This document shows, piece by piece, positions 13,611 through 60,207 of a stretch of 64,000 bases of DNA. The stretch is from the NCBI GenBank assembly GCA_044892525.1, contig CM097885.1, positions 868,001 through 932,000 of the forward strand, written 5' to 3'. The stretch comes from Schmidtea polychroa (lineage: Eukaryota). The notes under the pieces were generated by a model. That model was not told the origin of the DNA and made no database searches. It saw only the letters and a program-made list of their open reading frames with translations. Numbering within the stretch: the first letter of the stretch is position 1; each line of letters begins with the position of its first letter. Position numbers and translations under genes: made by a program.

Positions 13611-13614
13611 GGAT

Positions 13615-14060
13615 AAAAGATTAAATTTTTAAATTAAAGTAAATATTGGTTCTAAATTTTAAATTAAAGTTATTAAGGTCCAAATTTTAAAATTAAGTAA
13701 TCAATGGTAAAAAATTAAAGTTAAATAAGTAAATTAAAGTAAGATTTTTAAATTTATTAACAATTGAAATTTTTTAATGAAAGTTTTTATGAAATAATTT
13801 TTTATGAATAATTTTTAATAGAAATTTTAATGAAATATTTTTCAATGGTAATTTTTAATGGAAATGTTTATGAAATAATAATAAAAAAAATAATAATAAT
13901 ATATCAACCAAATACTATACAACACATAAAAAATTAACTAAACACATAAAAATAACTAGACACATAACAAAACATATAAACATTAACTAGACACATAAAA
14001 AACATAAAAATTTACCAAACAAATAACAAATGTATATATATAAACTTTTATTTAATAAAA
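13615..14060 (-). repeat. Right-end arm of pPolB subfamily B (3' flank plus ~29-bp AT-rich array)
   Basis: Reverse complement of 37470-37890. Confidence 0.8.
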
Positions 14061-17056
14061 TTAGTCCTCATCAGACAAAATAACGTCATCGATATCGATA
14101 TCATCTTCTCCAAAATCTTCTCCAACATCTTCAATAAGTTCTTCCTCATCTTCTCCAACATTTTCATCAAATTCATCTCCAACAATTTCTCCAACATTTT
14201 CTCCAATATTTAATTCACTTAATCTTACATGCCCATTTTTTCAGCAGCTTCAGGGAAATCTTCCAACTTCTCATTTAGCTCAGAAGAAATTACAAGATCA
14301 ACTTCAAGAGTGTATCCATAAGACAAAGAATCAAGATTTAAATTCCTACATTCATCCATTTTTAAATCAAATCCATCAAGAACCCAACTAAATTCACCAC
14401 AAGGTAATGATTGACTTAAAGCCCAACCATAAAGATTATTAATATCTATATAAAGTAACTCGGTGTTCTCATCGGTTTTTACGTAATGCTAATTCAAAAA
14501 AGTAATACCGCCTCTTATTCCACCCTCATAAAAGCTAAACATTTCGTTTTCAGTTATGAGCTCAATTGGTTCATTTAAAGACATTAATGCAGAAGACCAA
14601 GACATACCTGGAATTCCGAAATAATTCAATGGTTCCAATCTATTGTGAACAATAGATTTCATCCGAAACTGATGAAAGAAATCAGCCAAAAGAAAACAAT
14701 CAAGTTTTAAGTAGATCATCATATAATCTAATAAAGTTAGGCAATTAGTTTCTACCCAAATCTCCTGAGCTTTTTCATACTAAAGCTCAGTAACACCCTC
14801 CCAGATTGGTGGTAATTCATAAGTAGTTTGGAGAATATCTAAAGATGTAGCGAAATTATAAGGGAAGATTCCTTTTTCAGAAACTATAGTGCCAGAAAAA
14901 GCAGAATTAGTAAAAGGCAAAGAATTCAAAGTTTTGACTGCTTTAGCTAAAGAATCATTAACAAATTGATAAGAATCAATGAATTGATAAGAATCAATTC
15001 TTTTGCCTAAATGCGCAATCAAAGAAATAAATTTTTCAGTCGTTATTGGGATGCAACCTAAAGTCCAATTTTTAAATTTATTTAATCCGTATTTAAGTAT
15101 ATGATGCATATCGTATCCCTTCAAGTTGTGAAATACGATAGGCAAAATTTTATTTATTTTCTTATTTTTGTTACATGTGCTACAAGCTGCACCCAAATAT
15201 TTCCCCGTAAAATGATCGTGATCTCTAACAGGATCAACGATAGATTTCATACAAAGATAACAAACAGATGCACTAACAAATTGACGTTGTTCAATTTTCG
15301 TTAATTTAATCATAGGTTTCCTACCCATTTTATAATAAAAAGGAAGAACCTTATTTAATGCTATATCCTCTATAGCACTTAAAAAACTCTCGACGCAATC
15401 TAAACCTATGAACTGTTGATAAGATTTAGATCCGTCAAAGTTATTTACAAGTAAAAGACCAGCAGATATTGGCATGTGTCGTTGGAAATGAACATTATCA
15501 GAAGGTAAAATAGCCTCAAAATCGGCATAAACTACAAAAGGAGGAGTTACTGTTTTCGACCAGTCAGTAAACTGCAATAATTTATTTTGAGGGAAAGTGT
15601 AAAGAGTTGTTCCTAATTGATTACGTTTACATAATATTTCATGTTTTTCCAGTGCGTGTTTATACCTAAACCCATTCAAACACCGATGGCACCATAATGA
15701 ACGTATGCGTGTAGGACAACTAGTGTTGATACCACAATTCAGTAACCTATTTAAATTACTTATAGCAACGTAATGGAAATTGTTTCCTTTATTTAAAAGT
15801 AGTAAATTAATTACAGTTCCATTTAAAACTTTGGAACGATGTATAATATCTAAATGTGGATGTTTTAATACATAATTATCAGTTAATTGTTTGCTATTAT
15901 CATATGAAAAAACATTAATTATTAAACCCGAATTTTTAGATTCAAATTTCCTAATGTCTTTTAATTTCATAGGTAATTCTAACGGGTCGTATACTAAGTC
16001 AGATAAATTATAACTCGATGTCCTATTTCTAGCATAACTACTAACTTCATCATATTTTAAAATAGCTAAAATGCTATATAAAAAACATGAATCATCAGTG
16101 TTTTTTATATTAATTAAACAATATTTATTTTTTAGATAAGTAGGTGTTTCAATGAAACTCCTACCACTTAATCTACTTAACCTACTTATTTTTGTTATGG
16201 TGAAATGTATTTCAGTAATATTTTATATATTCCAACTGCTTCCTAACTCAGTAATATTAGTAATTTTCTCATTTAATTCTTTAATGCCTTCATCAAAAAA
16301 TGATGCAGTTAAAGGCTTTGCATAATTTGAGATATTATAAACCTTTATTTCCCCGTCTTTTTCAAATTCGATTGTTATTCCAAATTGAATTTTGACGGAG
16401 CCTTATTCGTTAATAATATCTCGTAATTTTATTATTAGTTGTTCAGGAAATATTACTTCTTTTATATTTAAGTCGCTGTATTTAAGCTTAATATTTGATG
16501 GGTACCTCTTAAATCTCTTTGTACTGTCGATACATTTCCACTTATTTGTATTATATTTAATCCATCCCAAGAATCAAAGGAAGTGAATAATCCATCATTG
16601 GATTCAACAACCAATCCATCATTGGATTCAACAAAAGGCAATCCGACCTGGGATTCAACAAAAGACAATCCGTCCTGGGATTCAACAACCAATCCATCAT
16701 TGGATTCAACAAAAGACAATCCGACCTGGAATTCAACAAAAGACAATCCAGCCTGGGATTCAACCTCTAATCCGACCTGGGATTCAAAAGAAGTATCTAA
16801 TTTAATTTTTTTATTTGTATTATTTTTTTCTATAGTTGAGGGTCTTTAAAAACACTATCTTTTTTAAAATTAAATCTATCTAAATGATTTTTATGTTTAT
16901 TATAAAAAACGCTATATGTTACAGGGTCACTAGTCTTACATACGGGACATATAAAATAAGTTTTATTATAATATTTTTTCGTGTAATAATTCTCCATTAT
17001 GGAATGGCAATTATTATCATGTTCTTTCGATGAACAATAATTTGGATAAAGTATAC
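14061..17056 (-). pseudogene. pPolB subfamily B, exon 4, with stops/frameshifts and deletion of polymerase motifs B and C
   Basis: ORFs 14780-15970 and 14489-14722; FPEAAEK is joined directly to the acidic tail; splice acceptor at 17057-17058. Confidence 0.9.
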
Positions 17057-17209
17057 CTATAAAATAAAAATTTAATAAAAATATATAATTTAAATGAAAT
17101 ATTTTAATAAATGTTTACGCAAAAATTTGCAAATTATTATTATTTTACAAATTTTATTTACTAAAAAATAAAAATTTACTAAATTAAAAATATTAACATT
17201 TACTTTTTT

Positions 17210-24535: not shown

Positions 24536-24929
24536 CTCCTTGGAATTGCCGCCTATTTCTGCGCAGTGCTAGGAATCTTATATTGGAGTGATTCTCCTAA
24601 GCGCTGGGAAACGGCGGGAGTAATCTGGTAATAATTTGAGTTTCTGAATAACATTAAAGAAATATTTTCACGGTAAAAAAGGGGACCTCCATCCGGCATT
24701 GGATCATCCTCCTGCAGCAGAATTATCTTTTTCATTTTCCTTAACTTTTAATTTTTCTATTTCTTTAACCTTTTTATAGAAAACTTTATTATCCTTTTCT
24801 ATATTTGAAAATTTTACATTATTAAAAGCGAAAATATCATTAATACCGCAATTTTGATTATTAATTACCCTTATTTTAGCTTTCGGATAATTTTGAAATA
24901 ATAAATATGGCATTTTCATGCTTTTCCTT

Positions 24930-26280
24930 GTCATCGGGCGAGATTTTTTTCCAATCAACCAGTGTGATTCCATCAAGTCCTGGAGCAGTGTTTTGGAGTT
25001 GTGAGAAGATTTATTATTTAGGATCTTCGTTATCTCCTCTTTAGGTTTTGTTTTATATTTGAATCTTTTAATACAAAGCAGTTCATTTTTAGCCCTGGTT
25101 TTGTTATGGACAATGTCTGCTGGTTTTTTAATTTTCTATTTTTTCCATTTCATTAAGGGCTGTGTCACGGTCCATATTGTCGTTATTTAAATTAGTTATT
25201 AAACCTTTAATAAGTGGGAGGTATTTTTTAATATTATCGTCAGGTATTTTGTAGGTAAAATAGTTTTCCTCAACAGTTCTGATATTTTTTTTGCATAATA
25301 GTAATTTTAGGAATGGTTAGTTTAGTATTCTTTATCAGGCATTGGATGAGGTGGCACACAAAAAAGGCAACTGGGATATTCATATTTTGTGAGTGTAATT
25401 GCGAGTGGTGAAACGATTTTTTGCAGATCAAGAATGGTATTCAGTATGCTATTAGCGAGAGATAAGTGTATGGAGTGGCTATCGTCAAGTAAAGAATCTA
25501 TTATAACAGCTAATTGTCTCCGCTTATCAAGATAAAAGAAAAACCAGTTGTCTTTGCCATTTGACATTGGCATAATAATTTCGTTCCACTCTGCGAAGTC
25601 TTTGAAGGGGAAGGAGGAGAAGAAGGTTTTGTAATTATGCTGGATTAGAAAGTTATCAACATAAGGGTCAACAAACATGGTAGATTTTTTCATGGCGAAA
25701 GAGTAAACGAATGCCTTTATTGTGTGCTGGGACCATCAAGCTGATTCCTCATACACGTTATTTGTGAATAAGCAATCATTTGGTATTTCTCTACTATAGT
25801 TAAAATCAAAACCATTTAGACATTCTTCATCTGATGAAGTTTGTTTCCCTTCCTTTGTGTTTCAAGGTTATCTGCAATCACCTCCTGGGTGTTTACTACA
25901 TTATTCATAATATTATAGTCATAATAATATTGTTAGTATTTGGTGGTATTGGGTGGCGTTGAGCTATATGATTGATAATGCCATCTACTGGGACCCAGCT
26001 CCTACATGCACAGTATATATCGGCATTTTTATCAATAATTCCATTTCTATGTTTTTTTGACATGTGCTCCCATACATATGCCAATGGAGTGTCCCAATTC
26101 CACGTCGTAAAGCATTTTTTGTAGTTCTTATTGTGGCTATTACATGTGAGGTGATTATTTTTGTCGATTTTAATAAATATCATTTTGAGGGTATCTTTAT
26201 CATTTTGTATTTCATGCACATATTGTTCGACATGTCTGTAAATGTCTTTGTGCTTCCCTGTTAGGGGAATAATAGCTGCT
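24930..26280 (-). pseudogene. NeSL-like fragment: zinc fingers, Ulp1-like domain, RT domain 0
   Basis: FFSSFPFKDFAEWNEIIMP..NWFFF..IID; TAPGLDGITLVDWKKISPD. Confidence 0.8.
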
Positions 26281-26639
26281 TTTACCTTTTTATCAAATGA
26301 ATTACTTCTCTACAAAATTCTTTAGATATTGGGTAAAATTAGTGTCAAAGTTATTTATCAGCATATGCATTGACAATACAGATAATGTAAATACAAATTA
26401 TGAATATATTAATAATATTTATCATTTAATAACAAAATTACGGTTTATGAAGTAGGGGGATTTCGATGGTTTGGCTAACGAAGCAAACCGGGTAGTTTCT
26501 AAAAGGGCAGAATTGATAGAGGCGTAAGAGTATACCTAGTATGCTAGTATACCTATGTTCATGTTATTAAAGATGAAAGGGTGACTGATGAGGATGTTGG
26601 CATTACGTATGATATTATTACATATAGGCAGTATTAGTT

Positions 26640-27710
26640 GGTAGTCAGGAGAAATTTTTCTCCAATTAGCAAGGGTAATCAAATCCATTCCTGGAGCAGT
26701 ATTGTCCAGTTGTTTGAAAATATATTTAATTTCGTCAATATCGAATGGGGTAGATGAGTGGTTCTCAGGATAATTTGGAATATATTTAATTGATTCAGGA
26801 TGACAATTAGCTATTTCACCATAATGGGCTTTTGAAAATTAACCTCGTTGTTTAAAATTCTCGCAATCTCCTCCTTGGGGTTAAACTTGTACCTATTTCT
26901 TTTTATCATGACTAATTCATTATTATTTTTTTTTATGGACTATATCTGCTGGTTTTTAATTAAATATTTTTTCTCATTAATATTAGCGTTTATTTTTTCT
27001 ATTTCTCCTAGTACATTATCACAGTCGGTTGCGTCTATATTAAGATCAATTATAAGACTACTGATAAATGTCCGATATTTTCGTACATCATCAGTAGGCA
27101 GTCTAGTATTACATAATTTTGTCAATATTACCTTTAATTCTCTCAATCATATTCGGAATATTGGGAGAAGTTAATTTTCTATTTAATATTAGACATTCAG
27201 TCATGTGGCACACAAAGAAGGCTGATTCATCTGGACTAATACATCGTGGATATTGGATTTGCTCTAGTTTAATTTCAACTGGCGTAACGATTTTTTGCAA
27301 GTCAAGGATAGTGGTGAGGACGTTATTACCAAGAGCGTTGTAAGACGAGTAAGAATCATTAACTGTAGGATCTATTATAAGAGCGAGTTTACGGCGTTTG
27401 TCAAGAAAGAACAAAAACCAGTTGTTTTTACCATTATACCTTGGCATGACAATCTCATTCCATTCTGCGAAGTCTCTAAAAGGAAAGGATTCGAAGAAAG
27501 TACGGAAGTTGTGCTGGATTAGCGAGTTACCTATTTATGGATCGACGAAGATGGTGGAGTTTCTTATTGCGAATGAGAAGATGAAAGCCTTGATTGTGTG
27601 CTGGGACCATCATGTTGATTCTTTTTCCAAATTAATTGAAAAAAGAATGGTATCCGGGATTTCTTTACCTATAACTTCATTATTATTTGGTGTTAGGTTA
27701 GATAATTAGT
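26640..27710 (-). pseudogene. NeSL-like fragment: Ulp1-like domain to RT domain 0
   Basis: NNWFLFFLDK..IIDP..DESAFFVCH; DNTAPGMD..ITLANWRKISPD. Confidence 0.8.
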
Positions 27711-29404: not shown

Positions 29405-29860
29405 TACTTTTATTTTATGATAATTACTAATTAAAATTTTATTCAAATTGAAATATTATTGTTACAATTTACACTCTTGTTAGAATATATTAAATGTAAA
29501 TGTAAAATAATAACAATAAAAAAAAATAATAATAATAAATAAAAAAATTAAATAAAAAAATTTAAATTAAAAAAAATAATAATAATTAGTTAAATAATTA
29601 ATTAAAAATTAATTAAAAATTAAATAAAAAAAATCATTTAAATAACGTAAGTAATTAAAATAAAATATTAATAATTAATTAATTAATTAAATGTAATAAA
29701 TTGAAAATTAACTAAAGTAATTAATTAAAACAAAAAACATAATAAAATAATTACTTAATAAATTTAAAAAAAAATTAAATAAAATGATTCGATTGACCTA
29801 TATTTGATCTGGACATTGGGATGACTTGAAAGTGTTCTGGAGTCCTCACTATATACTACA
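29405..29860 (+). repeat. Polinton-like TIR (right orientation) fused to the middle of pPolB
   Basis: Ends GGAGTCCTCACTATATACTAC; paralog of 30860-31300. Confidence 0.8.
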
Positions 29861-30680
29861 ACAGTTTATACGGTAAAACTGTGGAAAACTTGAAGAAACG
29901 TATAACTTTGAGATTATGCAACAAAAGCAAAAGATTGATAACTTATTGTAGTCATCCTATGATTCGTCGTAGCATCAAGATTGCGGATGATCTCATTGCT
30001 GTTATACTCAATAAGGAAATTGTGTGTTTAGATAGACCAATGTATATTGGACAAATCGTACTTGATTTATCCAAACTTCGCATGTACCAATTTCAATATA
30101 AAGAGCTACTGAGTTATAGAGAAGAATTCAATTGTCAAATTAATATCGTAGCCGGTGACACAGATTCCTTCTTTTTAAAGTGTAAAAATGTTGATTTACG
30201 CTTACAACTGTATCCAAAAACGATTGAAGATGGGATCTTAGATACTTCAAATTATGCAGTGACCGATCCGTTGTTCTCTGATGAAATTTGTTCTGTAATC
30301 GGGAAAGTTAAGGATGAGAATAAAGGAAATCAATATAAAGAATGGGTGTTTCTTCGACCCAAGTGCTACTCACTCCAAGGCGATAAAAACACTCTAAAAG
30401 CCAAAGGAATAAGACTTACAAACTCTAATCTTACACATGAAGCCTATAAAAAGTGTATACTGATGGTGGAACAGTGAGCATCCCACAAAAAAGAATAGGA
30501 AGTGTCAATCATCAGTTGTATACTTTCATGACAGAAAAACGAGCTCTCCAATGTTTGGACGATAAAAGGTATTGGTACAATTGTAATGAAAGCTATGCCT
30601 ACGGTCACTATAAGATTCGTCAAATGCATATTGCAACTGCTATGTCTAGAAATGAATGCAAATCGAAACAAGGACTTTAA
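29861..30680 (+). pseudogene. pPolB subfamily C, C-terminal part (motif B to stop), one frameshift
   Basis: NSLYGKTVEN, AGDTDSFF, LRPKCY, KAKG, DDKR. Confidence 0.9.
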
Positions 30681-30859
30681 CAATTAAATTTATGTGAATA
30701 ATAAAATATATATTGTGAATTATTTGACTTCGTTAATTAAAATATGTTTTATCATTTAATAATTCATTTGTCCAATTAATTTAGATAATTAGTTTTAAGT
30801 AAGAATTATTATTTATCATGAAAAACTTTGCTTTGTTTTGAAAAATTAATGCCCATTTT

Positions 30860-31300
30860 ATTTTAAATTAACACAGCTTTATTTTATGATTATTACTAAT
30901 TAAAATTTTATTCAAATTGAAATATTATTGTTACAATTTACACTCTTGTTAGAATATATTAAATGTAAATGTAAAATAATAACAATAAAAAAAAATAATA
31001 ATAATAATAAATAAATAAAAATTAAATTAAAAAAAAATTAATTAAATAACGTAAGTAATTAAAATAAAATATTAATAAATAATTAATTAATTAAATGTAA
31101 TAAATTGAAAATTAACTAAAGTAATTAATTAAAACAAAAAACATAATAAAATAATTAATTAATAAATTTAAAAAAAAATTAAATAGAAAAAATTAAATAA
31201 ATTTAAAAAAAAATAAATAGAAATGATTCTATTGACCTATATTTGATCTGGACATTGGGATGACCTTGAAAGTGTCCTGGAGTCCTCACTATATACTACT
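30860..31300 (+). repeat. Polinton-like right TIR ending ...ACTATATACTACT
   Basis: The reverse complement starts AGTAGT, the typical Polinton terminal microsatellite; recurs at 51779 and 55956. Confidence 0.8.
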
Positions 31301-33416
31301 AATTATAATCATAATTTTCTTTAATTTAACCCTTTATTTACTTAATTTAGCCCTTGTTTACCGAATATAGAAGTTTAAAATATAGACCATTGATTACTTT
31401 AATTTAAAAATGTATCCCTTAATATACATAATTTCCATCTAAAATTATTTCAAAAAAATTTTTTTTCTAAAATTGTCATTGAAAAATTTTCATAAAAGTT
31501 TTCATTTAAAATTTTCATTGAAAAATATTTCATAAAAATTTTTTTTAAAAATTATCTTAAAAATTATTCCATAAAAATTTCCATCTAAAATTACTTAAAA
31601 AATTATTTCATAAAAATTTTCATTAAAAAATTTCAATTCTCAAACACCTTCTATTATTTTGTTAATAATTTTAAAATACCGCAATGTAATATATTAATTT
31701 TTTCCTAACCTTCCTTGATTTTGATTGGTTAGAATTTGTTCCTATAAACAATAATAATCTATAAACAATAATAATCTATAAACAATAATCAATCATTAGT
31801 CACATTTAACAAATAATTAACCTTTAAAAATGAGTTCTTTAATAGAAAACGTTATGAATGTTCGAGAAAAAATTCAGGAATTTGGTAAATTTTAATTTAT
31901 TTATTAATTAATTTATTAATTAATTTAGATAATATTAATGAAGACAATTTAAAATCGAAGATTAAAGGAAATTTGAAAAGAAAAAGTAAACATAATTTTT
32001 AATTTATTAATTTAATTAATTAATAATTTAGGTAATAAGAATAAAGAGAAAAAATATGTCAATGTTTCAATAAATCGAAATGAAAATTTACAATGTAAGT
32101 ATTGATTACTTTTTATAATTTAAAGGAAATTTAATATAATTTTTTATTTAAGTAAATGTTAATATTTTTAATTTAGTAAATTTTTATTTTTTAGTAAATA
32201 AAATTTGTAAAATAATAATAATTTGCAAATTTTTGCTTAAACATTTATTAAAATCTTTCATTTAAATTATATATTTTTAATAAATTTTTATTTTATAGGT
32301 ATACTTTATCCAAATTATTGTTCATCGAAAAAACATAATAATAATTGCCATTCTATAATGGAGAATTATTACACGAAAAAATATTATAATAAAACTTATT
32401 TTATATGTCCCGTATGTAAGACTAGTGACCCTGTAACATGTTGCGTTTTTTATAATAAACATAAAAATCATTTAGATAGGTTTAATTTTAAAAAAGATAG
32501 TGTTTTTAAAAGACCCTCAACTATAGAAAAAAATATAACAAATAAAAATATTAAATTAGATACTTCTTTTGAATCCCAGGTCGGATTAGAGGTTGAATCC
32601 CAGGCTGGCTTGTCTTTTGTTGAATTCCAGGTCGGATTGTCTTTTGTTGAATCCAATGATGGATTATTCACTTCCTTTGATTCTTGGGATGGATTAAATA
32701 TAATACAAATAGGTGGAAATGTATCGACAGTACAAAGAGATTTAAGAGGTACCCATCAAATATTAAGTTTAAATACTAGCGACTTAAATATAAAAGAAAT
32801 AATATTTCCTGAACAACTAATAATAAAATTACGAGATATTATTAACGAATTAGGATCCGTCAAAATTCAATTCGGAATAACAATCGAATTTGAAAAAGAC
32901 GGGTAAATAAAGGTTAATAATATCTCCAATTACGCAAAACCTTTACCTGCATCATTTTTTGATCAAGGCATTAAGGAACTAAATGAGAAAATAACTAATA
33001 TTACAAAGTTAGGAAGCAATTGGATTATAAAAAATATAACAGAAATCCACTTCACTATAACAAAAATAAGTAGGTTAAGTAGATTAAGTGGTAGGAGTTT
33101 CATTGAAACACCTACTTATCTAAAAAATAAATATCGTTTAATTAATATAAAAAACACTGATGATTCATGTTTTTTATATAGCATTTTAGCTATTTTAAAA
33201 TATGATGAAGTTAGTAGTTATGCTAGAAATAGGACATCGAGTTATAATTTATCCGACTTAGTATATAACCCGTTAGAATTACTTATGAAATTAAAAGACA
33301 TTAGGAAATTTGAATCTAAAAATTCGGGTTTAATAATTAATGTTTTTTCATATGATACTAGCAAACAATTAACTGATAATTATGTATTAAAACATCCACA
33401 TTTAGATATTATACAT

Positions 33417-35691
33417 CAGGGGTGCCCACTAATTTTTCTAGGAGTGCTACATTCACACCCAAAATGTGTATGCGATCTACTTTTTCAATACTTACATAAT
33501 ATTTACCTACAATGCAATAAATTCATCACAATAGAACAAATATATGTCAAAATATGGAAAATTAAACTATGTAACTATTTATTATAAAAAAATGTAACTT
33601 AGGAAATCAAATTTAATGAAAATTATTGTTATATAGAACTTTTCGATGTTGATGCTCTACATTGGGTTGAATCCACTAGATTTTTGTAGTTTGGGATATA
33701 AGTGCTAAGACAACTTCTTAGGCTGGATTCCAAATGGTCATCTGTTAATGTTGCTCGGTACTTTGACTTAATAGTTTTCATATGTGAAAATGCAGACTCA
33801 CATAAATAAGTTGAACCAAAAGATGATAATAAATTTTCGAAGCATTTTTTCAAGTTTGAATATTTATCCTCTGATAGATATTTCCATACATTTGGTTCGG
33901 AAGATCTTGATTTAATGAAGATATCATTTTGAAGTGTGACTATTTCCATATCAAGTATAGGGATATCCATTTTAAACAAAGTTGAAATTGAATCTGCAAC
34001 AATTTCTGGCTTTATTTTTGGAATAAACGGAAAGGACATAAATGCAGCCACAATTTCAAGTTTCTTGAAGTCTTGAAAACGTCTCTCGAACTCTAAAACC
34101 AAAATTTTGATCTGTTCGGCATATCTCGTAATATTAAAGTTGACATTTTCAGATTCTTTTAATTGTGACAACATATTTGGAAAATAACTTAAATTTTTGT
34201 CTTTTATTTTGATAATAAGTAAATGAAGCTTTTGTATAAATGCAATGATTGAACTTATCATATCGAATATCAATTTATCCTTACGATGTAAGTCGAGATT
34301 TAATTCATTCAGAATTGCAGTAATATCTACTAAAAATGCCAAATCCAAGAGCCAAACATCATCTTCCAATTGCTTGAACTCATCACCTCTTGCGGCAAGG
34401 AACAACTTAATCTCAGAAAGCAAATCTCTAAATCTTTGTAAGAATTTTCCTCTACTTAGCCACTTTACATCTGAATGCATCAGTAATTCAGCAGGACCTT
34501 CGCTATTACTTTCTTCAATTTGTAATTTGAAAAGTCGTCTCTGAAGACTTCTTGCACGAATCGAGTTAGCAATTTTGAATGTTATTTCCATAATATCTCT
34601 CATATTCAGAATTTTAGCACACAAGGCTTGTTGATGAATAATACAGTTGTAGGAAAGAAAATCTGGGAATTCACAATCATTCCTACAATATGCTATAAAT
34701 CCGTTGTGACGCCCTGTCATAGCTGGTGCGCCATCTGTTGTTATTGATACAAGCTTACAAATTTGGAGCTGAATGCTGTTGGCATAAGCTTTAAAATTCT
34801 GAAATATATCCTCACCTCGAGTTGTACTTTTGAGTGGTATAATTGTTAATAATTCTTCCTTCGTAGAAAAATCTTTAAAGACCATTCGAATAAAAATTAT
34901 AAGCAGCGAAATATCAGCCGCATCAGTTGATTCGTCTGCTTGCAATGAAAATGCAGTACAATTTCCTATGTCTAACATTAACTGATATTTTAAATTGGTA
35001 CTTATTTCTTGGACTCTTCGTGTAACTGTATTACGGGACAATTGCATATCAGTAATAGCAGAAATTATATCTGATTTATTTTTAAAATCACAAAATAATG
35101 ATTCTGCCGCTTCTAAAAATGCTTCTTTTACAATTACTCCATCACTAAAAGATTTCTTATTTTTTGCCAGAATGTAGCTTACTCGGAAAGATGCAGCTGT
35201 AGCTGACTTTGATTTGGATGCTAGCGTCGTAAAAAATAACTGTTGAAAAAAAATGCATGTTTTCAGTTCCATGATTTTAGACTTGCGTAGTTCACTGTCA
35301 AGTGGATAATCAACTGCAAAATTCTTATGAATTGTCTTGAAATGCCTTTCCAAATTCCCTCTTTTTGGTAATGAAATAGTAGCTTTACAAATTAAGCAAC
35401 AACATTTACCTTTAATCATTACAAAAAAGTACTCCTTCTCCATTTCTTCGCTATAATGATAAGTCTTGGCTTTTCTATTTAGCATTTTTTATTTAGCATT
35501 TTTTATTTAGCATTTTTAAACAAAATTAATTTAACAATAAAGCTTAAGAAAATTTTTCACTTTGTTACACAAAAATTTAAGCATAAAACAGAAATTTTAT
35601 ATAAAATCTAAATTTATATAAAAAATATTTAAAAAATATTTATGAAGATCTACTAAAAAATCCTTCGCGATCGAACTTATGGGCACCCCTG
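33417..35691 (-). mobile_element. Complete hAT transposon (Buster/SPIN/GTF2IRD2-like), 2275 bp
   Basis: TIRs CAGGGGTGCCCA/TGGGCACCCCTG; 8-bp TSD TTATACAT (33409-33416 and 35692-35699). Confidence 0.97.
33629..35485 (-). CDS. hAT transposase, 618 aa
   Basis: CLIC..HF..H zinc finger, SLQADESTD, ITTDGAPAM, CIIHQQAL, VKWLS, FGSTYLCESAFS. Confidence 0.95.
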   Translation of the reverse strand: MLNRKAKTYHYSEEMEKEYFFVMIKGKCCCLICKATISLPKRGNLERHFKTIHKNFAVDYPLDSELRKSKIMELKTCIFFQQLFFTTLASKSKSATAASFRVSYILAKNKKSFSDGVIVKEAFLEAAESLFCDFKNKSDIISAITDMQLSRNTVTRRVQEISTNLKYQLMLDIGNCTAFSLQADESTDAADISLLIIFIRMVFKDFSTKEELLTIIPLKSTTRGEDIFQNFKAYANSIQLQICKLVSITTDGAPAMTGRHNGFIAYCRNDCEFPDFLSYNCIIHQQALCAKILNMRDIMEITFKIANSIRARSLQRRLFKLQIEESNSEGPAELLMHSDVKWLSRGKFLQRFRDLLSEIKLFLAARGDEFKQLEDDVWLLDLAFLVDITAILNELNLDLHRKDKLIFDMISSIIAFIQKLHLLIIKIKDKNLSYFPNMLSQLKESENVNFNITRYAEQIKILVLEFERRFQDFKKLEIVAAFMSFPFIPKIKPEIVADSISTLFKMDIPILDMEIVTLQNDIFIKSRSSEPNVWKYLSEDKYSNLKKCFENLLSSFGSTYLCESAFSHMKTIKSKYRATLTDDHLESSLRSCLSTYIPNYKNLVDSTQCRASTSKSSI

Positions 35692-37900
35692 TTATACATC
35701 GTTCCTAAGTTTCAAATGGAACTGTAATTAATTTACTACTATTAAATAAAGGAAACAATTTCCATTACGTTGCTATAAGTAATTTAAATAGGTTACTGAA
35801 TTGTGGTATCAACACTAGTTGTCCTACACGCATACGTTCATTATGGTGCCATCGGTGTTTGAATGGGTTTAGGTATAAACACGCACTGGAAAAACATGAA
35901 ATATTATGTAAACGTAATCAATTAGGAACAACTCTTTACACTTTCCCTCAAAATAAATTATTGCAGTTTACTGACTGGTCGAAAACAGTAACTCCTCCTT
36001 TTGTAGTTGATGCCGATTTTGAGGCTATTTTACCTTCTGATAATGTTCATTTCCAACGACACATGACAATATCTGCTGGTCTTTTACTTGTAAATAACTT
36101 TGACGGATCTAAATCTTATCAACAGTTCATAGGTTTAGATTGCGTCGAGAGTTTTTTAAGTGCTATAGAGGATATAGCATTAAATAAGTTTCTTCCTTTT
36201 TATTATAAAATGGGTAGGAAACCTATGATTAAATTAACGAAAATTGAACAACGTCAATTTGTTAGTGCATCTGTTTTTTATCTTTGTATGAAATCTATCG
36301 TTGATCCTGTTAGAGATCACGATCATTTTACGGGGAAATACTTGGGTGCAGCTTGTAGCACATGTAACAAAAATAAGAAAATAAATAAAATTTTGCCTAT
36401 CGTATTTCACAACTTGAAGGGATACGATATGCATCATATACTTAAATACGGATTAAATAAATTTAAAAATTGGACTTTAGGTTGCATCCCAATAACGACT
36501 GAAAAATTTATTTCTTTGATTGCGCATTTAGGCAAAAGAATTGATTCTTATCAATTCATTGATTCTTATCAATTTGTTAATGATTCTTTAGCTAAAGCAG
36601 TCAAAACTTTGAATTCTTAGCCTTTTACTAATTCTGTTTTTTCTGGCACTATAGTTTCTGAAAAAGGAATCTTCCCTTATAATTTCGCTACATCTTTAGA
36701 TATTCTTCAAACTACTTATGAATTACCACCAATCTGGGAGGGTGTTACTGTGCTTTAGTATGAAAAAGCTCAGGAGATTTGGGTAGAAACTATTTGCCTA
36801 ATTTTATTAGATTATATGATGATCTACTTAAAACTTGATTGTTTTCTTTTGGCTGATTTCTTTCATCAGTTTCGGTTGAAATCTATTGCTCACAATAGAT
36901 TGGAACCATTGAATTATTTCGGAATTCCAGGTATGTCTTGGTCTTCTGCATTAATGTCTTTAAATGAACCAATTGAGCTCATAACTGAAAACGAAATGTT
37001 TAGCTTTTATGAGGGTGGAATAAGAGGCGGTATTACTTTTGTGAATAAGCATTACGTAAAAACCGATAAGAACACCGAGTTACTTTATATAGATATTAAT
37101 AATCTTTATGGTTGGGCTTTAAGTCAATCATTACCTTGTGGTGAATTTAGTTGGGTTCTTGATGGATTTGATTTAATAATGGATGAAAGTAGGAATTTAA
37201 ATCTTGATTCTTTGTCTTATGGATACACTCTTGAAGTTGATCTTGTAATTTCTTCTGAGCTAAATGAGAAGTTGGATGATTTCCCTGAAGCTGCTGAAAT
37301 ATTGGGCATGTAAGATTAAGTGAATTAAATATTGGAGAAAATGTTGGAGAAATTGTTGGAGAAAATGTTGGAGAAATTGTTGGAGATGAATTTGATGAAA
37401 ATGTTGGAGAAGATTTTGGAGAAGATGATATCGATATCGATGACGTTATTTTGTCTGATGAGGACTAATTTTATTAAATAAAAGTTTATATATATACATT
37501 TGTTATTTTTTTGGTAAATATTTATGTTTTTTATGTGTCTAGTTAATGTTTATATGTTTTGTTATGTGTCTAGTTATTTTTATGTGTTTAGTTAATTTTT
37601 TATGTGTTGTATAGTATTTGGTTGATATATTATTATTATTATTTTTATTATTATTTCATAAACATTTCCATTAAAAATTACCATTGAAAAATATTTCATT
37701 AAAATTTCTATTAAAAATTATTCATAAAAAGTTATTTCATAAAAACTTTCATTAAAAAATTTCAATTGTTAATAAATTTAAAAATCTTACTTTAATTTAC
37801 TTATTTAACTTTAATTTTTTACCATTGATTACTTAATTTTAAAATTTGGACCTTAATTAATTTTAATTTAATTTTTTAGAACCTTAATTTAGTTATTTGT

Positions 37901-39284
37901 GCCGATGAGAACACCGAGTTACTTTATATAGATATTAATAATCTTTATGGTTGGGCCTTAAGTCAATCATTACCTTGTTGTGAATTTAGTTGGGTTCTTG
38001 ATGGATTTGATTTAATAATGGATGAATGTAGGAATTTAAATCTTGATTCTTTGTCTTATGGATACACTCTTGAAGTTGATCTTGTAATTCCTTCTGAGCT
38101 TCATGATAAGTTGGATGATTTCCCTGTAGCAGCTGAAAAAATGAAACCTGCTGGGTCTAAGGTTAAAAAAGTATTATTAACTCATCTTCCAAAATCTAAT
38201 TATGTGATTCATTGGAGATTATTAAAATTATATTTGGAACTTGGTGTTAAAGTAACACGTGTAAATAGGGGTGTAAGATTTAAGCAATCTCCAATTTTTA
38301 AAAAATATATAGATACAAATACAGAATTAAGGTCAAAAAGCATAAATAATTTAGATAAAAATTATTATAAATTGTTAAATAACAGTTTATACGGCAAAAC
38401 AGTTAAAAATTTAAAGAGAAGAATGAATCTTCGTCTTTGTACAACTGCCGGTAAATAAGTAACATATTCTTCAAAGCCGACTTTTAAAAAACTATTAAAA
38501 TAGATGATAATTTAATTGCGGCATTAGTGAATTCAGATTCTATATGTTTAGATAGACCAAGTTACATTGGTCAATCTGTACTTGATCTATCTAAACTTAG
38601 AATGTATGTATTACAATATATTATATTGAATATAAGGATCTAGAATCATTTCGCAATGAGTTTAATAATAAAATTAATATCGTTGCAGGTGATACAGATT
38701 CTTTTTTCCTCGAAGTCATTAACTGTAAACTTGAGGTTCTTTTACCTGCAATGATTCGAGATAATTTATTAGATACTTCCAATTACAATAGTTGTCATTC
38801 CTTATATAGTAAGAACTTTGATTCTGTCATTGGAAAGTTCAAAGACGAGAATAAAGGTCTTAAATATAAGGAATGGGTTTTTCTTAGACCTAAATTATAT
38901 AGCTTGTTGGGTGATGAGGAAACAAAAAAGGCTAAAGGTGTAACATTGAAAGGTAGTGACATAAAACATCAGTCATACCTGGATTGTTATAACACTAACC
39001 AGATTTTTTCGGTTCCTCAGACTAAAATAACAAGCAAAAATCATCAAATTTTTACAATTAAAAATACTAAAATAGCACTAACTAACAAAGATGACAAAAG
39101 GGTTTGGGTGGGAAAAAATACTAGTCTTGCATATAGGCATGTAAGATTAAGTGAATTAAATATTAGAGAAAATGTTGGAGAAATTGTTGGAGAAGATGAG
39201 GAAGAATTTATTGAAGATGTTGGAGAAGATTTTGGAGAAGATGATATCGATATCGATGACGTTATTTTGTCTGATGAGGACTAA
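37901..39284 (+). pseudogene. pPolB-B C-terminal half (motifs A, B, C and acidic tail), disrupted
   Basis: YIDINNLYG, KLLNNSLYGK, AGDTDSFF, DDKR; stop at 38456 and frameshifts. Confidence 0.9.
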
Positions 39285-39785
39285 TTTTATTAAATAAAAG
39301 TTTATATATATACATTTGTTATTTTTTTGGTAAATATTTGTTTTGTTATGTGTCTAGTTAATGTTTATATGTTTTGTTATGTGTCTAGTTATTTTTATGT
39401 GTTTAGTTAATTTTTTATGTGTTGTATAGTATTTGTTATTGTTGTATAGTATATAGTTATTTGTGCCCATTCATTACTTTAATTTAAAATTTTGGACCTT
39501 GATTTACTTTATTTTAATTTTTTAGAACCATTATTTACTTTAATTTAAAAATTTGAATCTTACTTTACTTAGTTGAGCCCTTAATTAACTTTAATTTTAA
39601 ATTTTGAACCATTATTTACTTTAATTTAAAAATTTGAACCTTAATTTAGTTATTTGAGCCTATTCATTACTTTAATTCAAAAATCTTAGCCCATAATTTA
39701 CTTTAATTCAAAAAAATCTGAACCTTGATTTACTTAAATTTAATTTTTTAGACCCATAATTTGCTTTATTTTAAAAATATACTAT
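39285..39785 (+). repeat. Right-end arm and array of subfamily B
   Basis: Same 3' flank and ~29-bp units as 21900-22430. Confidence 0.75.
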
Positions 39786-40109
39786 GCGTTTTTAATGTAA
39801 ACCACCTTTTCTATTGAAATTCTCATGACCAAGGAGACCCCCTCACTGTAGTCTGAAAAATCCATGCTTTTTTATTGAAGACTACCTTTTTCTATTGAAA
39901 TTCTCAGGACCAAGGAGACCCACCCAAATAATATTTATACTTGGCTTGTTTATTGAAAAAAAAATTTTTTGTATTTAAAATCCCAGAAAAAATACATTGG
40001 AGCGTACGGCAACAATTATGTATTCAAAAAATGTCTACGGCAAAAATTATGCAATCAAAAGTTTGCAACATTTTTACCCCCCCCCTATTTCTCCCGCGGG
40101 CCCCTAACT

Positions 40110-40900
40110 ACCTATTCGCGCATCAGAAAAGATGCAATCCAGCAGAGTATTGTTTTCAAGACAACCATCTACTGGTTTCAATCCCTTCTGTGCATTCGAA
40201 TCCCAACGGCAACTACTTACTTTTGCCACTAAGATCTTATTAAGTGTCCTAGTTAACACTGAGTTAACGGGAAAAAAATAAAAATCACCTGAATTTTTAG
40301 GGGTTTCTACTTTTAGGATTAATGAGGTTCGTGCTGTCTTTTAAGGTCATGAAATATGTCTGGAAATGGGCGTGGGGCTTGTGGGTTCTCCATCGCCTGC
40401 TCCAGGCCCATCTCCTTCATCCTGTCTTCTAACTCTTTAAAAACTGCTTTATATTTTTTTATTATCTAGGTGCTTGCGAATAGATTCCTTTGAAAGTTCC
40501 AACATCCAAGGTGAAGTATTTCTAGAAGGTGAGAGGAAGACTGTAACGATTTTTAAGGTGAAGTGGAGCCATGAAGAGCTCTTCTTCATTACTTTAGTAA
40601 TAAGCAAGATTTTTTGTATAGTTTCCTCAAGATAGTCTCAATACGTAAGGTGCGATGGGCTTTAGATATATGGACTCCACGTCCCCTCAGCGTTAAGAAA
40701 GGTAAAAAGCAATATTCACAGACAAACTACTGTTCCACATCCCTCTCCAGTTTTGTAGTGTTGTTATTTCCTGTCATTTCATATTTATTTTGTTCGTGGA
40801 AGTTCATTCGTGTTGGATATCCTCCAACATGATACCCAACTGGCCAACAAGTAAAAATAGTAAAAGGGGACCTCACGAATGAAGTGGTGTGGGGAATAAA
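40110..40900 (-). pseudogene. R2/NeSL-like RT fragment
   Basis: NAQKGLKPVDGCLENNTLLDCIFSDAR. Confidence 0.7.
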
Positions 40901-45529: not shown

Positions 45530-46150
45530 AAAGGTCAAGGTCAAGGTCAATGTCAAGGTCAAGGTCAAGGTCATTTTTTTTAAATAAGTGATCCTGAGGG
45601 CCCATACTTTTTTTCATCCCAAAGATTTATGTTCCCGCCAACAGATTTTATTGATCGATAGCTCATCGTAAAGCCCAGTGCAAGACCTTTAAGTTGAATT
45701 AAAGATTCCTATCATCCGATGACTCATCATATTTTTAGAACAAAGACAATGACTCATTAAGGTAATTCTATTTTTAGTAATAAAGACATCCATTTTTAGT
45801 AACATTTGAATCTATTTTTAGTAACATTTTTGAACAAAGACAATGATTTAACCGAGGACTCATCGTTTTTAGAACAATGAATCAGCCGGTGACTAATCAG
45901 ATTTTAAGAACGATGACTCATTCGATGACTCATCAAAATTTTAGAACAAAGACAAAGGCTCACCCAATGACTCATCACATTTTTAGAACGATGACTCTTC
46001 ATAGTTTTAGAACGATGATTCATACGGTGACTCATCATATTTTAAGAACAAATATAATGACTCATCATTATTTTAGAACGGTTACTCATTCGATGACACG
46101 TCAAGGTCATTCTATTTTAAGTAACAAAAACATCTATTTTTAGTAACATT
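45530..46150 (+). promoter_or_regulatory. Array of AAGGTC hexamers followed by TGACTCA-containing degenerate repeats
   Basis: (AAGGTC)n at 45531-45573; about seven exact TGACTCA in 45720-46065. A regulatory role is inferred only. Confidence 0.45.
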
Positions 46151-51779: not shown

Positions 51780-54700
51780 AATTATAATCATAATTTTCTT
51801 TAATTTAACCCTTTATTTACTTAATTTAGCCCTTGTTTACCGAATAAAGAAGTTTAAAATATAGACCATTGATTACTTTAATTTAAAAATGTATCCCTTA
51901 ATTTACATAATTTCCATCTAAAATTATTTCAAAAAAATTTTTTTTCTAAAATTGTCATTGAAAAATATTTCATAAAAGTTTTCATTTAAAATTTTCATTG
52001 AAAAATATTTCATAAAAATTTTTTTTAAAAATTATCTTAAAAATTATTCCATAAAAATTTCCATCTAAAATTACTTAAAAAATTTTCATTAAAAAATTTC
52101 AATTCTCAAATACCTTCTATTATTTTGTTAATAAATTTAAAATCTTACTTTAATTTGCTTATTACATTACTTATTTAAAAATTATTACTTTAATTTACTT
52201 ATTTAAAATATTTGACCATTGATTACTTAATTTAAAAATTTGGACCTTAATTTACTTTAATTTTAAATTTGGACCTTAATTTACTTTAATTGAAAATTTT
52301 AGACCTTAATTGAAAATTTTAGACCATAATTTTCATGTAAAATTGTCATTGAAAAAATTTTCATTTCTCAGGCGCCGTTTAGTAGGTGGTTAGGAGCCCG
52401 CTTCAAATGCAAGCCTTTTTTTTTGCTGCAACATTTGATTGCGCAATTGTTGCAACTTGTTTTTTTTCTATTGAAAATTCTAGAAAAAAAATATTCGTAG
52501 CTTACTGTACAGCAAAAAAAATGAGTTGCAACAATTGCGTAATCAAAATTTGCAGCAAAAAAAAAGTTGCCGCAGACCCCCTCCCCCCCCCCCTAAAATT
52601 TTCAATTAGGGTCTAAAATTTTCAATTAAAGTAAATTAAGGTACAAATTTTGAATTAAAGTTAATTAAGGGTCAAAATTTAAAATTAAAGTAAATTAAGG
52701 TTCTAAAAAATTAAATTAAAGTTAATTAAGGTCCAAATATTTTAAATAAGTAAATTAAAGTAATAATTTTTAAATAAGTAATGTAATAAGCAAATTAAAG
52801 TAAGATTTTAAATTTATTAACAAAATAATAGAAGGTGTTTGAGAATTGAAATTTTTTAATGAAAATTTTTATGAAATATTTTTCAATGACAATTTTAGAA
52901 AAAAAAATTTTTGAAATAATTTTAGATGGAAATTATTTAAATTAAGGGATACATTTTTAAATTAAAGTAATCAATGATCTATATTTTAAACTTCTATATT
53001 CGGTAAACAAGGACTAAATTAAGTAAATAAAGGGTTAAATTAAAGAAAATTATGATTATAATTATAATTAGATTTAAAGAATAATTACCTTTTCATTTAA
53101 CACTACAGTGTTAATTCTTACCATTTTAGAATAATATTTTTTATCAAAGTTCTTATCTTGATTTATTTAATTTTAATTGAAAGTAATGACGAAATAGAAC
53201 GTGTTGTCTTCAATTTTAATGAATTAATTTGAAATATTATTTAGATAAATATTTGTGTTTAAGGTATTCCTTAGTAATATTTTTTTTAGAGTTGATGGTT
53301 TTTGTGAATTTTTATCATTTTCATGAATTTCATGTGGATAGAATGAATATTTAAAAATTTTAAGTTAGTTCTAAGATAAATTTAATTAATTTCTTGATAA
53401 TTGGATGCATTTTTATTGATTGGTTTTTTAATTTTAAATAAAAATTATTTTTAATGACAGTTAGGTTATTAATCACGTGATAGGATATGACTTCGTAATA
53501 ATATTTTTTTTCATATATTTTCTAAGAATTTCATGTAGATTTATTTAAAAATTTAAAGTTTTAATGACGATTTTATTTGAATTTCTTGATAATTTGTTAA
53601 ATTTTAAATAAAAATTAATTTTTTTTAATGACTGTTAGGTTAATAATTAAGTAATTGGTTTAATTTTAGATGACTTTGTAATGCATTAGACTAAATAATT
53701 TTTTTCAATAATTTTCTAAGAATATTAACACATTGATGAACTTTTTTAAAAAAAACATAAGCTAAGAAACCAGTTAACCTTATAAAGAACTTTAAATTTA
53801 CTTGATAATTTACAGAAATAATATACAAAATTTAATTTACAGAAATAATTTACAAAATAATAATACAGAAATTTATGATTAAGTTTGCTTTTATGAACAA
53901 TCAATATATATCATCTCTAGTTAGGTATTTGATAGGTGAAATATTTGTAGTAAATAATAAGTTTATTATGTCTTTGTTACATAACTCGACTTTAGCGTCA
54001 AAATGTGTTTTTAAAATAAATTTTAATTTTAAAATACCGCAATGTAATATATTAATTTTTTCCTAACCTTCCTTGATTTTGATTGGTTAGAATTTGTTAC
54101 TATAAACAATAATAATCTATAAACAATAATAATCTATAAACAATAATCAATCATTAGTCAAATTTAACAAATAATTAACCTTTAAAAATGAATTCTTTAA
54201 TAGAAAACGTTATGAATGTTCGAGAAAAAATTCAGGAATTTGGTAAATTTTAATTTATTTATTAATTAATTTATTAATTAATTTAGATAATATTAATGAA
54301 GACAATTTAAAATCTTTATTTTTTCTTAAATTTTACATTTACATTATATTCTAAAAAGAGAGTTAATTATAACAATAATATTTCAATTTGTATAAAATTT
54401 TAATTAGTAATTATTCAATTTGAATAAAATATTTATTAGAAATTATTTAATTTATTATAAAATAAAACGCTGTGTTAATTTTAAATAAACTGGATATTAA
54501 TTTTTTGGAAAAAATAAATATATAAAATAGTCTAAAAGGTTAAATTATGGTCTAAAATTTAAAATTTAAAAATTGAAAATTGAAAATTAAAAACTAAACT
54601 AATCAAACTAAATCAAACGCTATAACCTTAATTCAAGAATTCACTAAAGTAGATCAGAAGATATTAATTATCAAAATGTAACAAAGACTCTGAAATTCAT

Positions 54701-57700: not shown

Positions 57701-58660
57701 TGAATTTCATGTGGATAGAATGAATATTTAAAAATTTTAAGTTAGTTCTAAGATAAATTTAATTAATTTCTTGATAATTGGATGCATTTTTATTGATTGG
57801 TTTTTTAATTTTAAATAAAAATTATTTTTAATGACAGTTAGGTTAATAATCACGTGATAGGATATGACTTTGTAATAATATTTTTTTTCATATATTTTCT
57901 AAGAATTTCATTTAGATTTATTTAAAAATTTAAAGTTTTAATGACGATTTTAATTGAATTTCTTGATAATTTGTTAAATTTTAAATAAAAATTAATTTTT
58001 TTTAATGACTGTTAGGTTAATAATTAAGTAATTGGTTTAATTTTAGATGACTTTGTAATGCATTTGACTAAATAATTTTTTTCAATAATTTTCTAAGAAT
58101 ATTAACACATTGATGAACTTTTTTAAAAAAACATAAGCTAAGAAACCAGTTAACCTTATCAAGAACTTTAAATTTACTTGATAATTTACAGAAATAATAT
58201 ACAAAATTTAATTTACAGAAATTATTTACAAAATAATAATACAGAAATTTATGATTAAGTTTGCTTTTATGAACAATCAATATATATCATTTCTAGTTAG
58301 GTATTTGATAGGTGAAATATTTGTAGTAAATAATAAGTTTATTATGTCTTTGTTACATAACTCGACTTTAGCGTCAAAATGTGTTTTTAAAATAAATTTT
58401 AATTTTAAAATACCGCAATGTAATATATTAATTTTTTCCTAACCTTCCTTGATTTTGATTGGTTAGAATTTGTTCCTATAAACAATAATAATCTATAAAC
58501 AATAATCAATCATTAGTCACATTTAACAAATAATTAACCTTTAAAAATGAATTCTTTAATAGAAAACGTTATGAATGTTCGAGAAAAAATTCAGGAATTT
58601 GGTAAATTTTAATTTATTTATTAATTAATTTAGATAATATTAATGAAGACAATTTAAAAT
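50168..58660 (+). repeat. Tandem duplication, ~4.1-4.3 kb units (50168-54313 and 54314-58660)
   Basis: Paired ORFs 50916/55093, 52386/56607 and 53875/58251; the junction lies inside pPolB-B exon 2. Confidence 0.92.
54930..55331 (+). pseudogene. pPolB-C 3' fragment followed by a right TIR ending at 55956
   Basis: IGKFKDENKG..LRPKCY; duplicate of 50750-51154. Confidence 0.85.
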
Positions 58661-60171
58661 CGAAGATTAAAGGAAATTTGAAAAGAAAAAGTAAACATAA
58701 TTTTTAATTTATTAATTTAATTAATTAATAATTTAGGTAATACGAATAAAGAGAAAAAATATGTCAATGTGTCAATAAATCGAAATGGAAATTTACAATG
58801 TAAGTATTGATTACTTTTTATAATTTAAAGGAAATTTAATATAATTTTTTATTTAAGTAAATGTTAATATTTTTAATTTAGTAAATTTTTATTTTTTAGT
58901 AAATAAAATTTGTAAAATAATAATAATTTGCAAATTTTTGCGTAAACATTTATTAAAATCTTTCATTTAAATTATATATTTTTATTAAATTTTTTATTTT
59001 ATAGGTATACTTTATCTAAATTATTGTTCACGAAAAAACATGATAATAATTGCCATTCTATAATGGAGAATTATTACACGAAAAAATATTATAATAAAAC
59101 TTATTTTATATGTCACGTATGTAAGACTAGTGACCCTGTAACATGTAGCGTTTTTTATAATAAACATAAAAAACATTTAGATAGATTTAATTTTAAAAAA
59201 GATAGTGTTTTTAAAAGACCCTCAACTATAGAAAAAAATAATACAAATAAAAAAATTAAATTAGATACTTCTTCTTTTGAATCCCAGGTCGGATTAGAGG
59301 TTGAATCCCAGGCTGGATTGTCTTTTGTTGAATTCCAGGTCGGATTGTCTTTTGTTGAATCCAATGATGGATTGGTTGTTGAATCCCAGGTCGGATTGGT
59401 TGTTGAATTCAATGATTGATTATTCACTTCCTTTGATTCTTGGGATGGATTAAATATAATACAAATAGGTGGAAATGTATCGACAATACAAAGAGATTTA
59501 AGAGGTACCCATCAAATATTAAGTTTAAATACTAGCGACTTAAATATAAAAGAAATAATATTTCCTGAACAACTAATAATAAAATTACGAGATATTATTA
59601 ACGAATTAGGATCCGTCAAAATTCAATTCGGAATAACAATCGAATTTGAAAAAGACGGGGAAATAAAGGTTAATAATATCTCCAATTACGCAAAACCTTT
59701 AACTGCATATTTTTTGATCAAGGCATTAAGGAACTAAATGAGAAAATAACTAATATTACAAAGTTAGGAAGCAATTGGATTATAAAAAATATAACAGAAA
59801 TCCACTTCACTATAACAAAAATAAGTAGGTTAAGTAGATTAAGTGGTAGGAGTTTCATTGAAACACCTACTTATCTAAAAAATAAATATTGTTTAATTAA
59901 TATAAAAAACACTGATGATTCATGTTTTTTATATAGCATTTTAGCTATTTTAAAATATGATGAAGTTAGTAGTTATGCTAGAAATAGGACATCGAGTTAT
60001 AATTTATCCGACTTAGTATACGACCCGTTAGAATTACCTATGAAATTTAAAGACATTAGGAAATTTGAATCTAAAAATTCGGGTTTAATAATTAATGTTT
60101 TTTCATATGATAATAGCAAACAATTAACTGATAATTATGTATTAAAACATCCACATTTAGATATTATACAT
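58547..60171 (+). pseudogene. pPolB-B 5' part with the three introns, truncated
   Basis: Same exon/intron layout as the 31830 copy; stop at 59417. Confidence 0.88.
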
Positions 60172-60207
60172 CCCAAAAACGCCATCGCTCTGATAGACAA
60201 CTTACCC

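Follow-up and report, generated by a model that had tools for sequence, protein, structure and literature searches.

The window, that is, the whole analysed stretch of 64,000 nucleotides (G000:C1:868001-932000), belongs to a 781-Mb AT-rich genome and contains a mosaic of decayed pPolB copies together with pieces of MULE, hAT, and non-LTR retroelements (Table 1). The pPolB family of the window is herein referred to as family B; families A and C are separate pPolB families of the same genome. On re-reading of the sequence, the three introns proposed in the first-pass annotation were found in place, all with GT-AG ends and in phase 1, behind an ATG at 31830. The last base of leader exon 3 is the first base of the codon for the first Cys of a putative zinc-binding motif, and the first in-frame ATG of the main exon is located at 32358. 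The promoter words include a reverse CCAAT at 31723 and TATAAA at 31743, 31760, and 31777, in 17-bp tandem units. Nuclear Pol II expression, which had been taken as implied by the introns, would fit both the introns and these words, but would be expected of any integrated Polinton.

The spliced leader had also been described as continuous with the pPolB ORF. In the window this is not so: an in-frame stop (32904-32906) is located 201 residues into exon 4, an hAT transposon with a 619-aa frame (Pfam Dimer_Tnp_hAT) splits the gene, and the rest of it lies in several broken frames. The reported recurrence of the layout at 58547 holds for the exon-intron pattern, with exons of 55, 57, and 63 nt and introns of only 32, then 46 and 205 nt (58602-58633, 58691-58736, and 58800-59004). 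However, this copy is a broken paralogue, 94% identical to the copy at 31830, and therefore provides no independent support for the introns. Elsewhere in the window are a MULE transposase with a FLYWCH finger, open for 476 codons (7160-8590, minus strand), and decayed non-LTR retroelement pieces (8749-13628 and 24704-27534, both on the minus strand) with RVT_1 and a weak Ulp1-like Peptidase_C48 match. The contig-end megabase that includes the window (G000:C1:0.38-1.34 Mb) holds 16 of the first 100 listed leader matches, mostly on the plus strand, and may be a duplicated transposon graveyard or a piRNA-cluster-like region. In planarians, Polintons are targeted by piRNAs (PMC8532177).

Table 1. 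Features of the window; positions are counted from its first nucleotide.
Feature	Positions	Strand	Remarks
Minus-strand pPolB copy, ending inside intron 3	14234..17205	-	
Family A arm, 3' part and terminus	29858..31301	+	Directly upstream of the promoter of the 31830 leader
Promoter words, Pol II-type	31723..31797	+	Sequence words; putative function
Leader exon 1, 55 nt, ATG at 31830, ends in phase 1	31830..31884	+	GC 0.27, stop-free
Predicted intron 1, 44 nt, GTAAAT..TTTAG	31885..31928	+	GC 0.045; 47-nt counterpart in family C
Leader exon 2, 57 nt	31929..31985	+	GC 0.18, stop-free
Predicted intron 2, 46 nt, GTAAAC..TTTAG	31986..32031	+	GC 0.065; 46-47-nt counterpart in family C
Leader exon 3, 63 nt	32032..32094	+	GC 0.19, stop-free
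Predicted intron 3, 204 nt, GTAAGT..TATAG	32095..32298	+	GC 0.093
Main pPolB exon (exon 4), start	32299..33417	+	Cys/His motif, then terminal-protein-like and vOTU-like parts
hAT DNA transposon, 2,275 bp, inside pPolB	33418..35692	-	8-bp target duplication
Remaining pPolB (vOTU His, C2H2, exonuclease, EndoVII-like insert, Pol A motif)	35693..37313	+	Broken frames
Second 3' pPolB segment, partly overlapping (Pol A, B, C motifs)	37880..39284	+	Broken
Right terminal repeat, degenerate	39476..40116	+	83% like family B end
Incomplete copy, from promoter through exon 1 and intron 1 into exon 2	54024..54314	+	
Second leader-bearing copy	58547..60172	+	Frame lost 18 residues into exon 4

The GC content is 18-27% in the leader exons and 4-9% in the introns, adjoining exons being two to six times richer. 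As in spliceosomal introns of the U2 type, GT-AG ends, a branch-like word, and a T-rich 3' tract are present in the predicted introns, such words being common in AT-rich DNA. No leader-type chain arose in 1000 dinucleotide shuffles of 31700-32298, a loose control with a rule written after the real case had been seen. To compare copies, the 30 best genomic matches were fetched (40 scored of 1578 candidates). Intact splice pairs and an open leader were found in 29 of 32 copies examined, which were picked by similarity and so are not independent. Among the 30 best matches, 18 of the 22 dispersed copies are open for more than 566 codons, and all 8 copies read in the contig-end cluster run into a stop soon after entering exon 4. 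The introns were met only within element copies. When the window copy is set against a second one, L032, changes are found at 8 of 175 exon sites and at 6 of 294 intron sites; thus, no exon constraint is visible at that distance.

A comparison across families is more informative. The family C protein is 48-50% identical to that of family B. In the C leader, exons measuring 58, 57, and 60 nt alternate with three phase-1 introns (47, 46, and 553 nt); the letters are unlike those of B, and a Cys is again found at junction 3. In a second C copy, exons 2 and 3 differ by 6 and 6 nt and introns 2 and 3 by 1 and 454 nt; the exon indels, being multiples of three, keep the frame. The same three phase-1 mini-exons in family C, together with these indels, indicate that the B introns are probably real, and a leader common to a family ~50% identical in protein is likely to be old. 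In both B and C, the Cys completed by intron-3 splicing is located seven residues before the next Cys. Relatives of the Cys/His region were found with HMMER (32 proteins), and 22 of them gave 24 scorable motif instances; 11 proteins had no pattern match, several of them called from later starts, and 2 instances lay too near the start. A Cys is located 5-7 residues upstream of the second Cys in 23 of the 24 instances, 5 of them at seven residues as in B and C. The protein P0013 carries the motif with its first Cys and without an intron.

The polymerases of families A and B are ~48-50% identical. Within the conserved region of family A are two inserts of 48 and 39 nt with GT-AG ends, in phase 1, and with GC of 0.15 and 0.10; opposite them, the homologues have gaps of 16 residues (5/5) and 11-13 residues (5/5). 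Both inserts are stop-free multiples of three, and from these sequence features we predict introns inside conserved domains, although they could also be coding inserts. A third insert, near L033:3735, has no distinct acceptor and is not counted among the introns. Much of the non-coding DNA between centre and promoter is common to A and B (L032:296-1300 and L033:960-2000), which, given polymerases only ~48% identical, suggests module exchange. In the 5' region of a family A copy (L033:2062-2400, G000:C3), a short element is found that has inverted ends and, apparently, a duplication of 8 bp.

Taken on the sequences of these families, the three leader introns are very probably spliced. The opposite reading, in which the 470 upstream bases are AT-rich non-coding DNA with chance GT and AG words, draws on the composition of the region (~90% AT), where such words are common, and on the lack of any spliced read or processed copy. 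None of the 15 listed joints, out of 63 in contigs of four runs on L032:1250-5790, falls at the leader introns, the genome search gave 0 matches for processed copies without intron 3 or intron 2, and no spliced N-terminus scored in the protein searches. Nevertheless, the shuffles, the same layout in different letters in family C, and the intron-like inserts that interrupt conserved domains in family A make an unspliced leader very improbable. Contig depth, which cannot rank parts, was not counted as evidence: AT-rich DNA drops out, and cut reads occur at 1501-1545. In run X1, guessed to be RNA, this depth is 0.15 in the intron-3 bin, 3-4 in the bins of exons 1-3, and ~50-400 over most of the main exon; in runs X3 and X4, it is roughly even. 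One X2 contig opens with 13 T and then enters the sequence 14 bases into intron 3, too short a stretch to be counted as bridging; internal priming, antisense RNA, and unspliced RNA are the options for this start.

If the introns are spliced, the mini-exons might still be mainly 5' untranslated, with translation from 32358 and loss of the first half of the Cys/His motif. The proteins P0001, P0067, P0071, and P0073 are indeed called from the matching Met, and the leader peptides of B and C, compared by eye, look unrelated. However, the three junctions keep one stop-free frame in both B and C, and the exon indels of C are multiples of three. The Cys, Cys, His, and Cys upstream of the Met are conserved in relatives, and P0083, a member of the P0001 cluster, carries the motif upstream. 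Hence, an untranslated leader appears improbable, and a coding leader is only slightly less probable than splicing itself. In most relatives, the protein begins 2-5 residues upstream of the first Cys; with the unlike leader peptides of B and C, this suggests that the leader may not matter as a protein.

The order of domains in the gene is Cys/His motif, terminal-protein-like domain, vOTU, exonuclease, and polymerase. The open frame of L032 contains the Cys/His motif, a low-complexity spacer, a modelled domain, a C2H2 finger, what we take to be exonuclease motifs, an EndoVII-like insert (Pfam E 0.003), and, further on, motifs that we take to be Pol A, B, and C. The Pfam family PF03175 was above cut-off in two window fragments and was not listed by Pfam for the whole L032 frame. 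The model of residues 140-470 (pLDDT 85) matched first the Pol IV little finger (Z 8.1, rmsd 2.4, 92 aligned, a middling Z) and after it OTU domains (Z 5-6, up to 6.1, rmsd 3.2, 93 aligned, also middling). In the available text of PMC11071308, a little-finger-like domain followed by OTU corresponds to terminal protein and vOTU. The vOTU Cys and His are invariant in 33 of 33 rows, and the best viral fold match was Drosophila-associated adintovirus 2 (E 1e-19). The protein is assigned to Alpha-class adintovirus PolB by its domains. The single-sequence fold of the P0013 N-terminus was unusable (pLDDT 39), so that the putative zinc binding is deduced from the residue pattern. In PDB, sequence searches gave 0 matches with a single protein and 4 weak zinc-finger or nuclease matches with a profile; no relative was found in IMG/VR, and the sole match in JGI metagenomes was the 4.1-kb contig of P0013 itself. 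The N-terminal Cys/His motif occurs in two or three tandem copies, with no Pfam match, in P0047, P0050, P0056, P0064, P0065, P0016, and P0017.

The intron-3 donor 24-mer has 684 exact copies in the genome (control, 0). Outside the contig-end cluster, 48 of the 84 listed leader places form 24 divergent pairs spaced by 2.2-6.4 kb, and no convergent pair within 8 kb was found among these 84; for the control, family C, there was 1 pair among 99 leader places. The element at G000:C3:115027418-115041180 is a 13,763-bp palindrome with arms 99.86% identical over 6.6 kb, AGTAG ends, a 6-bp direct duplication, and one outward pPolB frame of 1309 codons per arm; it has no other frame longer than 114 codons. 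Two further B palindromes with 6-bp duplications are 13.5 and 15.0 kb long. In total, target duplications of 6 bp were found for three of four B palindromes, the ends of the fourth (L013/L014) being outside the stretches fetched, and for the single family A palindrome (13.1 kb; 1/1). The B terminal 22-mer has 365 copies; 60 of 100 listed places pair, and 26 of the 30 pairs are spaced by 12.5-16.8 kb. The subtype of the window is 90-94% like the young family and also occurs in a monomeric form, 9.0 kb long, which has terminal repeats of ~660 bp and a 6-bp duplication; the 4.2 kb in the middle of this form, unread, equal the gene in length. Neither integrase nor packaging ATPase, protease, or capsid was found in the mapped B elements and the A arm. 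Thus, the family encodes pPolB alone, in palindromes of 13-15 kb or a monomer of 9 kb. Monomer-type copies have a second terminus-like AGTAG motif inside the left end (L050:2161 and L052:2222).

The centre of the B palindromes, as read in the 500 bases upstream of L013-L030, is a repeat module of 0.5-1.5 kb with a poly-G tract and a GC-rich hairpin at each border (z of -2.9 and -3.7 in two copies). The central GC-rich stems look error-prone in several copies. The centre of L032 is deleted down to a 14-nt loop, and a piece of the B centre matches window positions 45570-45760. In family A, both borders of the centre match the terminal 24-mer of family C with 1 mismatch (23/24). Across seven loci covering centres and ends, Rfam gave only a sub-threshold hairpin match.

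Family C, in contrast, is a complete Polinton with an rve integrase, an A32 ATPase, a TBP, and frames that we take to encode capsid proteins. It also ends in AGTAG and has 264 exact leader donors. Its TBP homologue (L045:4179-4670; PF00352, E 8e-15) is located head-to-head with the packaging ATPase, and its integrase frame (L045:2354-2520) is broken by an (ATT)n tract of variable length. This tract resembles a microsatellite-filled intron, and many genomic matches end at the same residue. The family C integrase has at least 150 genome matches at 84-100%, and a C leader is located within 10 kb of 32 of its 54 places on C1. In C1 0-83 Mb, a C leader was found within 10 kb of 14 of 25 family C integrase places and a B leader near none (0/25); this linkage was checked with the family C integrase only, and complete Polintons that combine a B-type polymerase with a different integrase may exist. 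At four unpaired B places (L046-L049), two of them the monomer-like subtype of the window and two rearranged, no helper-type gene cassette was found directly upstream; L046 has two short family C cassette matches ~2 kb upstream. Since the B elements have no integrase of their own yet carry AGTAG ends and 6-bp duplications, their integrase most likely comes from complete Polintons.

We regard it as likely that the element of the window is a decayed Polinton-derived element whose sole gene is a host-spliced pPolB, with a helper integrase and palindromic kin. Under this interpretation, host Pol II would transcribe pPolB and the transcript would be spliced, so that translation would begin in the first of three phase-1 mini-exons, which together encode a variable leader of ~58 residues, and would continue across the third junction, where the first Cys codon of the motif is restored. 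Family B would have lost integrase, ATPase, and capsid and kept the Polinton-type AGTAG ends. The polymerase would copy its own element, protein-primed from the outer ends, and its insertion would be carried out by the integrase that complete Polintons of this genome encode.

The palindromes, with one outward gene per arm and a non-coding centre bounded by Polinton-like ends, might arise when a displaced strand folds back at an inner inverted repeat, possibly that of a small gene-less Polinton lying upstream of pPolB; the arms would then be re-copied from each other through a long panhandle. Such arm correction is analogous to adenovirus terminal-repeat repair, and a fold-back replication model was reportedly proposed for Polintons by Kapitonov and Jurka in 2006. 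Within elements, the arms differ at 0, 0, 0, 0, and 1 of 2380 sites in five of six young pairs, and the median between elements is 21 of 2380; in the remaining pair, L020/L021, one arm is disrupted and the difference is wide. The near-identical arms suggest fold-back replication. However, they are also expected if the palindromes are real and their arms are kept identical by arm-to-arm gene conversion in the chromosome, or evened by assembly or polishing, with no fold-back form needed. The existence of a monomeric 9-kb form and the error-prone look of the central stems would agree with such evening. Arms of different elements may also match fully (L020/L022, 0 differences). On the other hand, differing flanks and a direct 6-bp duplication indicate that each palindrome was inserted as one unit, and L013 and L014 are identical to each other while differing at 46 sites or more from all the other copies sampled, a pattern not expected from cross-copy polishing. 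Conversion may still account for it. We consider evening of the arms in the chromosome or in the assembly unlikely, chromosomal arm-to-arm conversion being the main rival to the fold-back mechanism. For fold-back with re-copying through the panhandle, argued in part by analogy, the chances appear about even. More tentative, at somewhat less than even, is the broader proposal that these elements are self-replicating Polinton satellites with a host-spliced polymerase, a fold-back genome, and a captured mini-Polinton centre, living as parasites that depend on complete Polintons for integration and, perhaps, for packaging. Lineages A and B, ~50% identical, would both be of this kind, in hundreds of copies, one of them gaining introns in conserved domains.

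Among known systems, the Alpha-class Polintons/Mavericks (adintoviruses), as described in the available part of PMC8502044, likewise have a PF03175 pPolB with terminal-protein-like and vOTU-like domains, the Cys and His being kept. Terminal inverted repeats and the 6-bp target duplication are also common to both. In contrast, the mapped B and A elements have no integrase, ATPase, protease, or capsid, and B elements often carry two gene copies as one palindrome. The B element works like a Polinton but falls outside the autonomous class. The earlier remark that pPolB is usually intronless agrees with the intact vertebrate Mavericks of PMC8097293, as far as its available text goes, unlike the family B gene with its predicted spliceosomal introns. 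Excerpts of PMC4405056 state that all Polintons have pPolB and integrase in common, and the known reductions in those of PMC4028283 lose virion genes. Such capsid-less Polintons resemble B in the loss of the virion module and in transposon life, but keep the integrase, whereas B keeps the polymerase and has lost the integrase (excerpts of PMC4028283 and PMC4405056). In the available sections of PMC11071308, pGKL-type cytoplasmic linear plasmids have a Polinton-derived TP-vOTU-EXO-PALM polymerase without virion genes, as B does. These plasmids are unintegrated and have their own transcription genes, whereas B is integrated with target duplications. Teratorn has internal TIRs; unlike B, it fuses a herpesvirus with piggyBac, spans 41-182 kb, and encodes a transposase of its own.

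The start codon of the adenovirus E2B polymerase lies in a small upstream exon. Adenoviruses descend from Polintons (available text of PMC11071308) and splice extensively, their Polinton-derived pPolB being expressed in the nucleus among heavily spliced transcripts (available text of PMC7851563). Unlike B, they do not integrate; their vOTU is inactive, and their terminal protein is a separate one (PMC11071308, in part). Introns in related elements include introners in dinoflagellate Polinton-like elements (10.1101/2025.03.18.643946, in excerpts) and group I introns (PMC12220804, in excerpts). In the part of the literature covered, neither spliced leaders of Polinton pPolB genes nor palindromes with pPolB as their sole gene are described; the founding paper by Kapitonov and Jurka, the 2015 paper by Krupovic and Koonin, Repbase, and supplements, all outside this coverage, might contain either.

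New here are the palindromic polymerase-only architecture and the inner introns predicted in family A. The pPolB-only palindromes reverse the usual reduction, in which the integrase is kept and virion genes are lost. They provide a natural high-copy test of the Polinton fold-back model, arm identity and free panhandle DNA being measurable, and hundreds of palindromes of 13-15 kb bear on host genome stability and on assembly. Polinton genes are annotated as single ORFs, so that a spliced start would lead to wrong N-termini, and families rich in introns, A among them, would pass for dead. In P0083, P0093, and P0097, the called N-termini are Phe-rich just before the Cys motif, as if the 3' end of an intron had been read through, and spliced starts may therefore be common in the clade.
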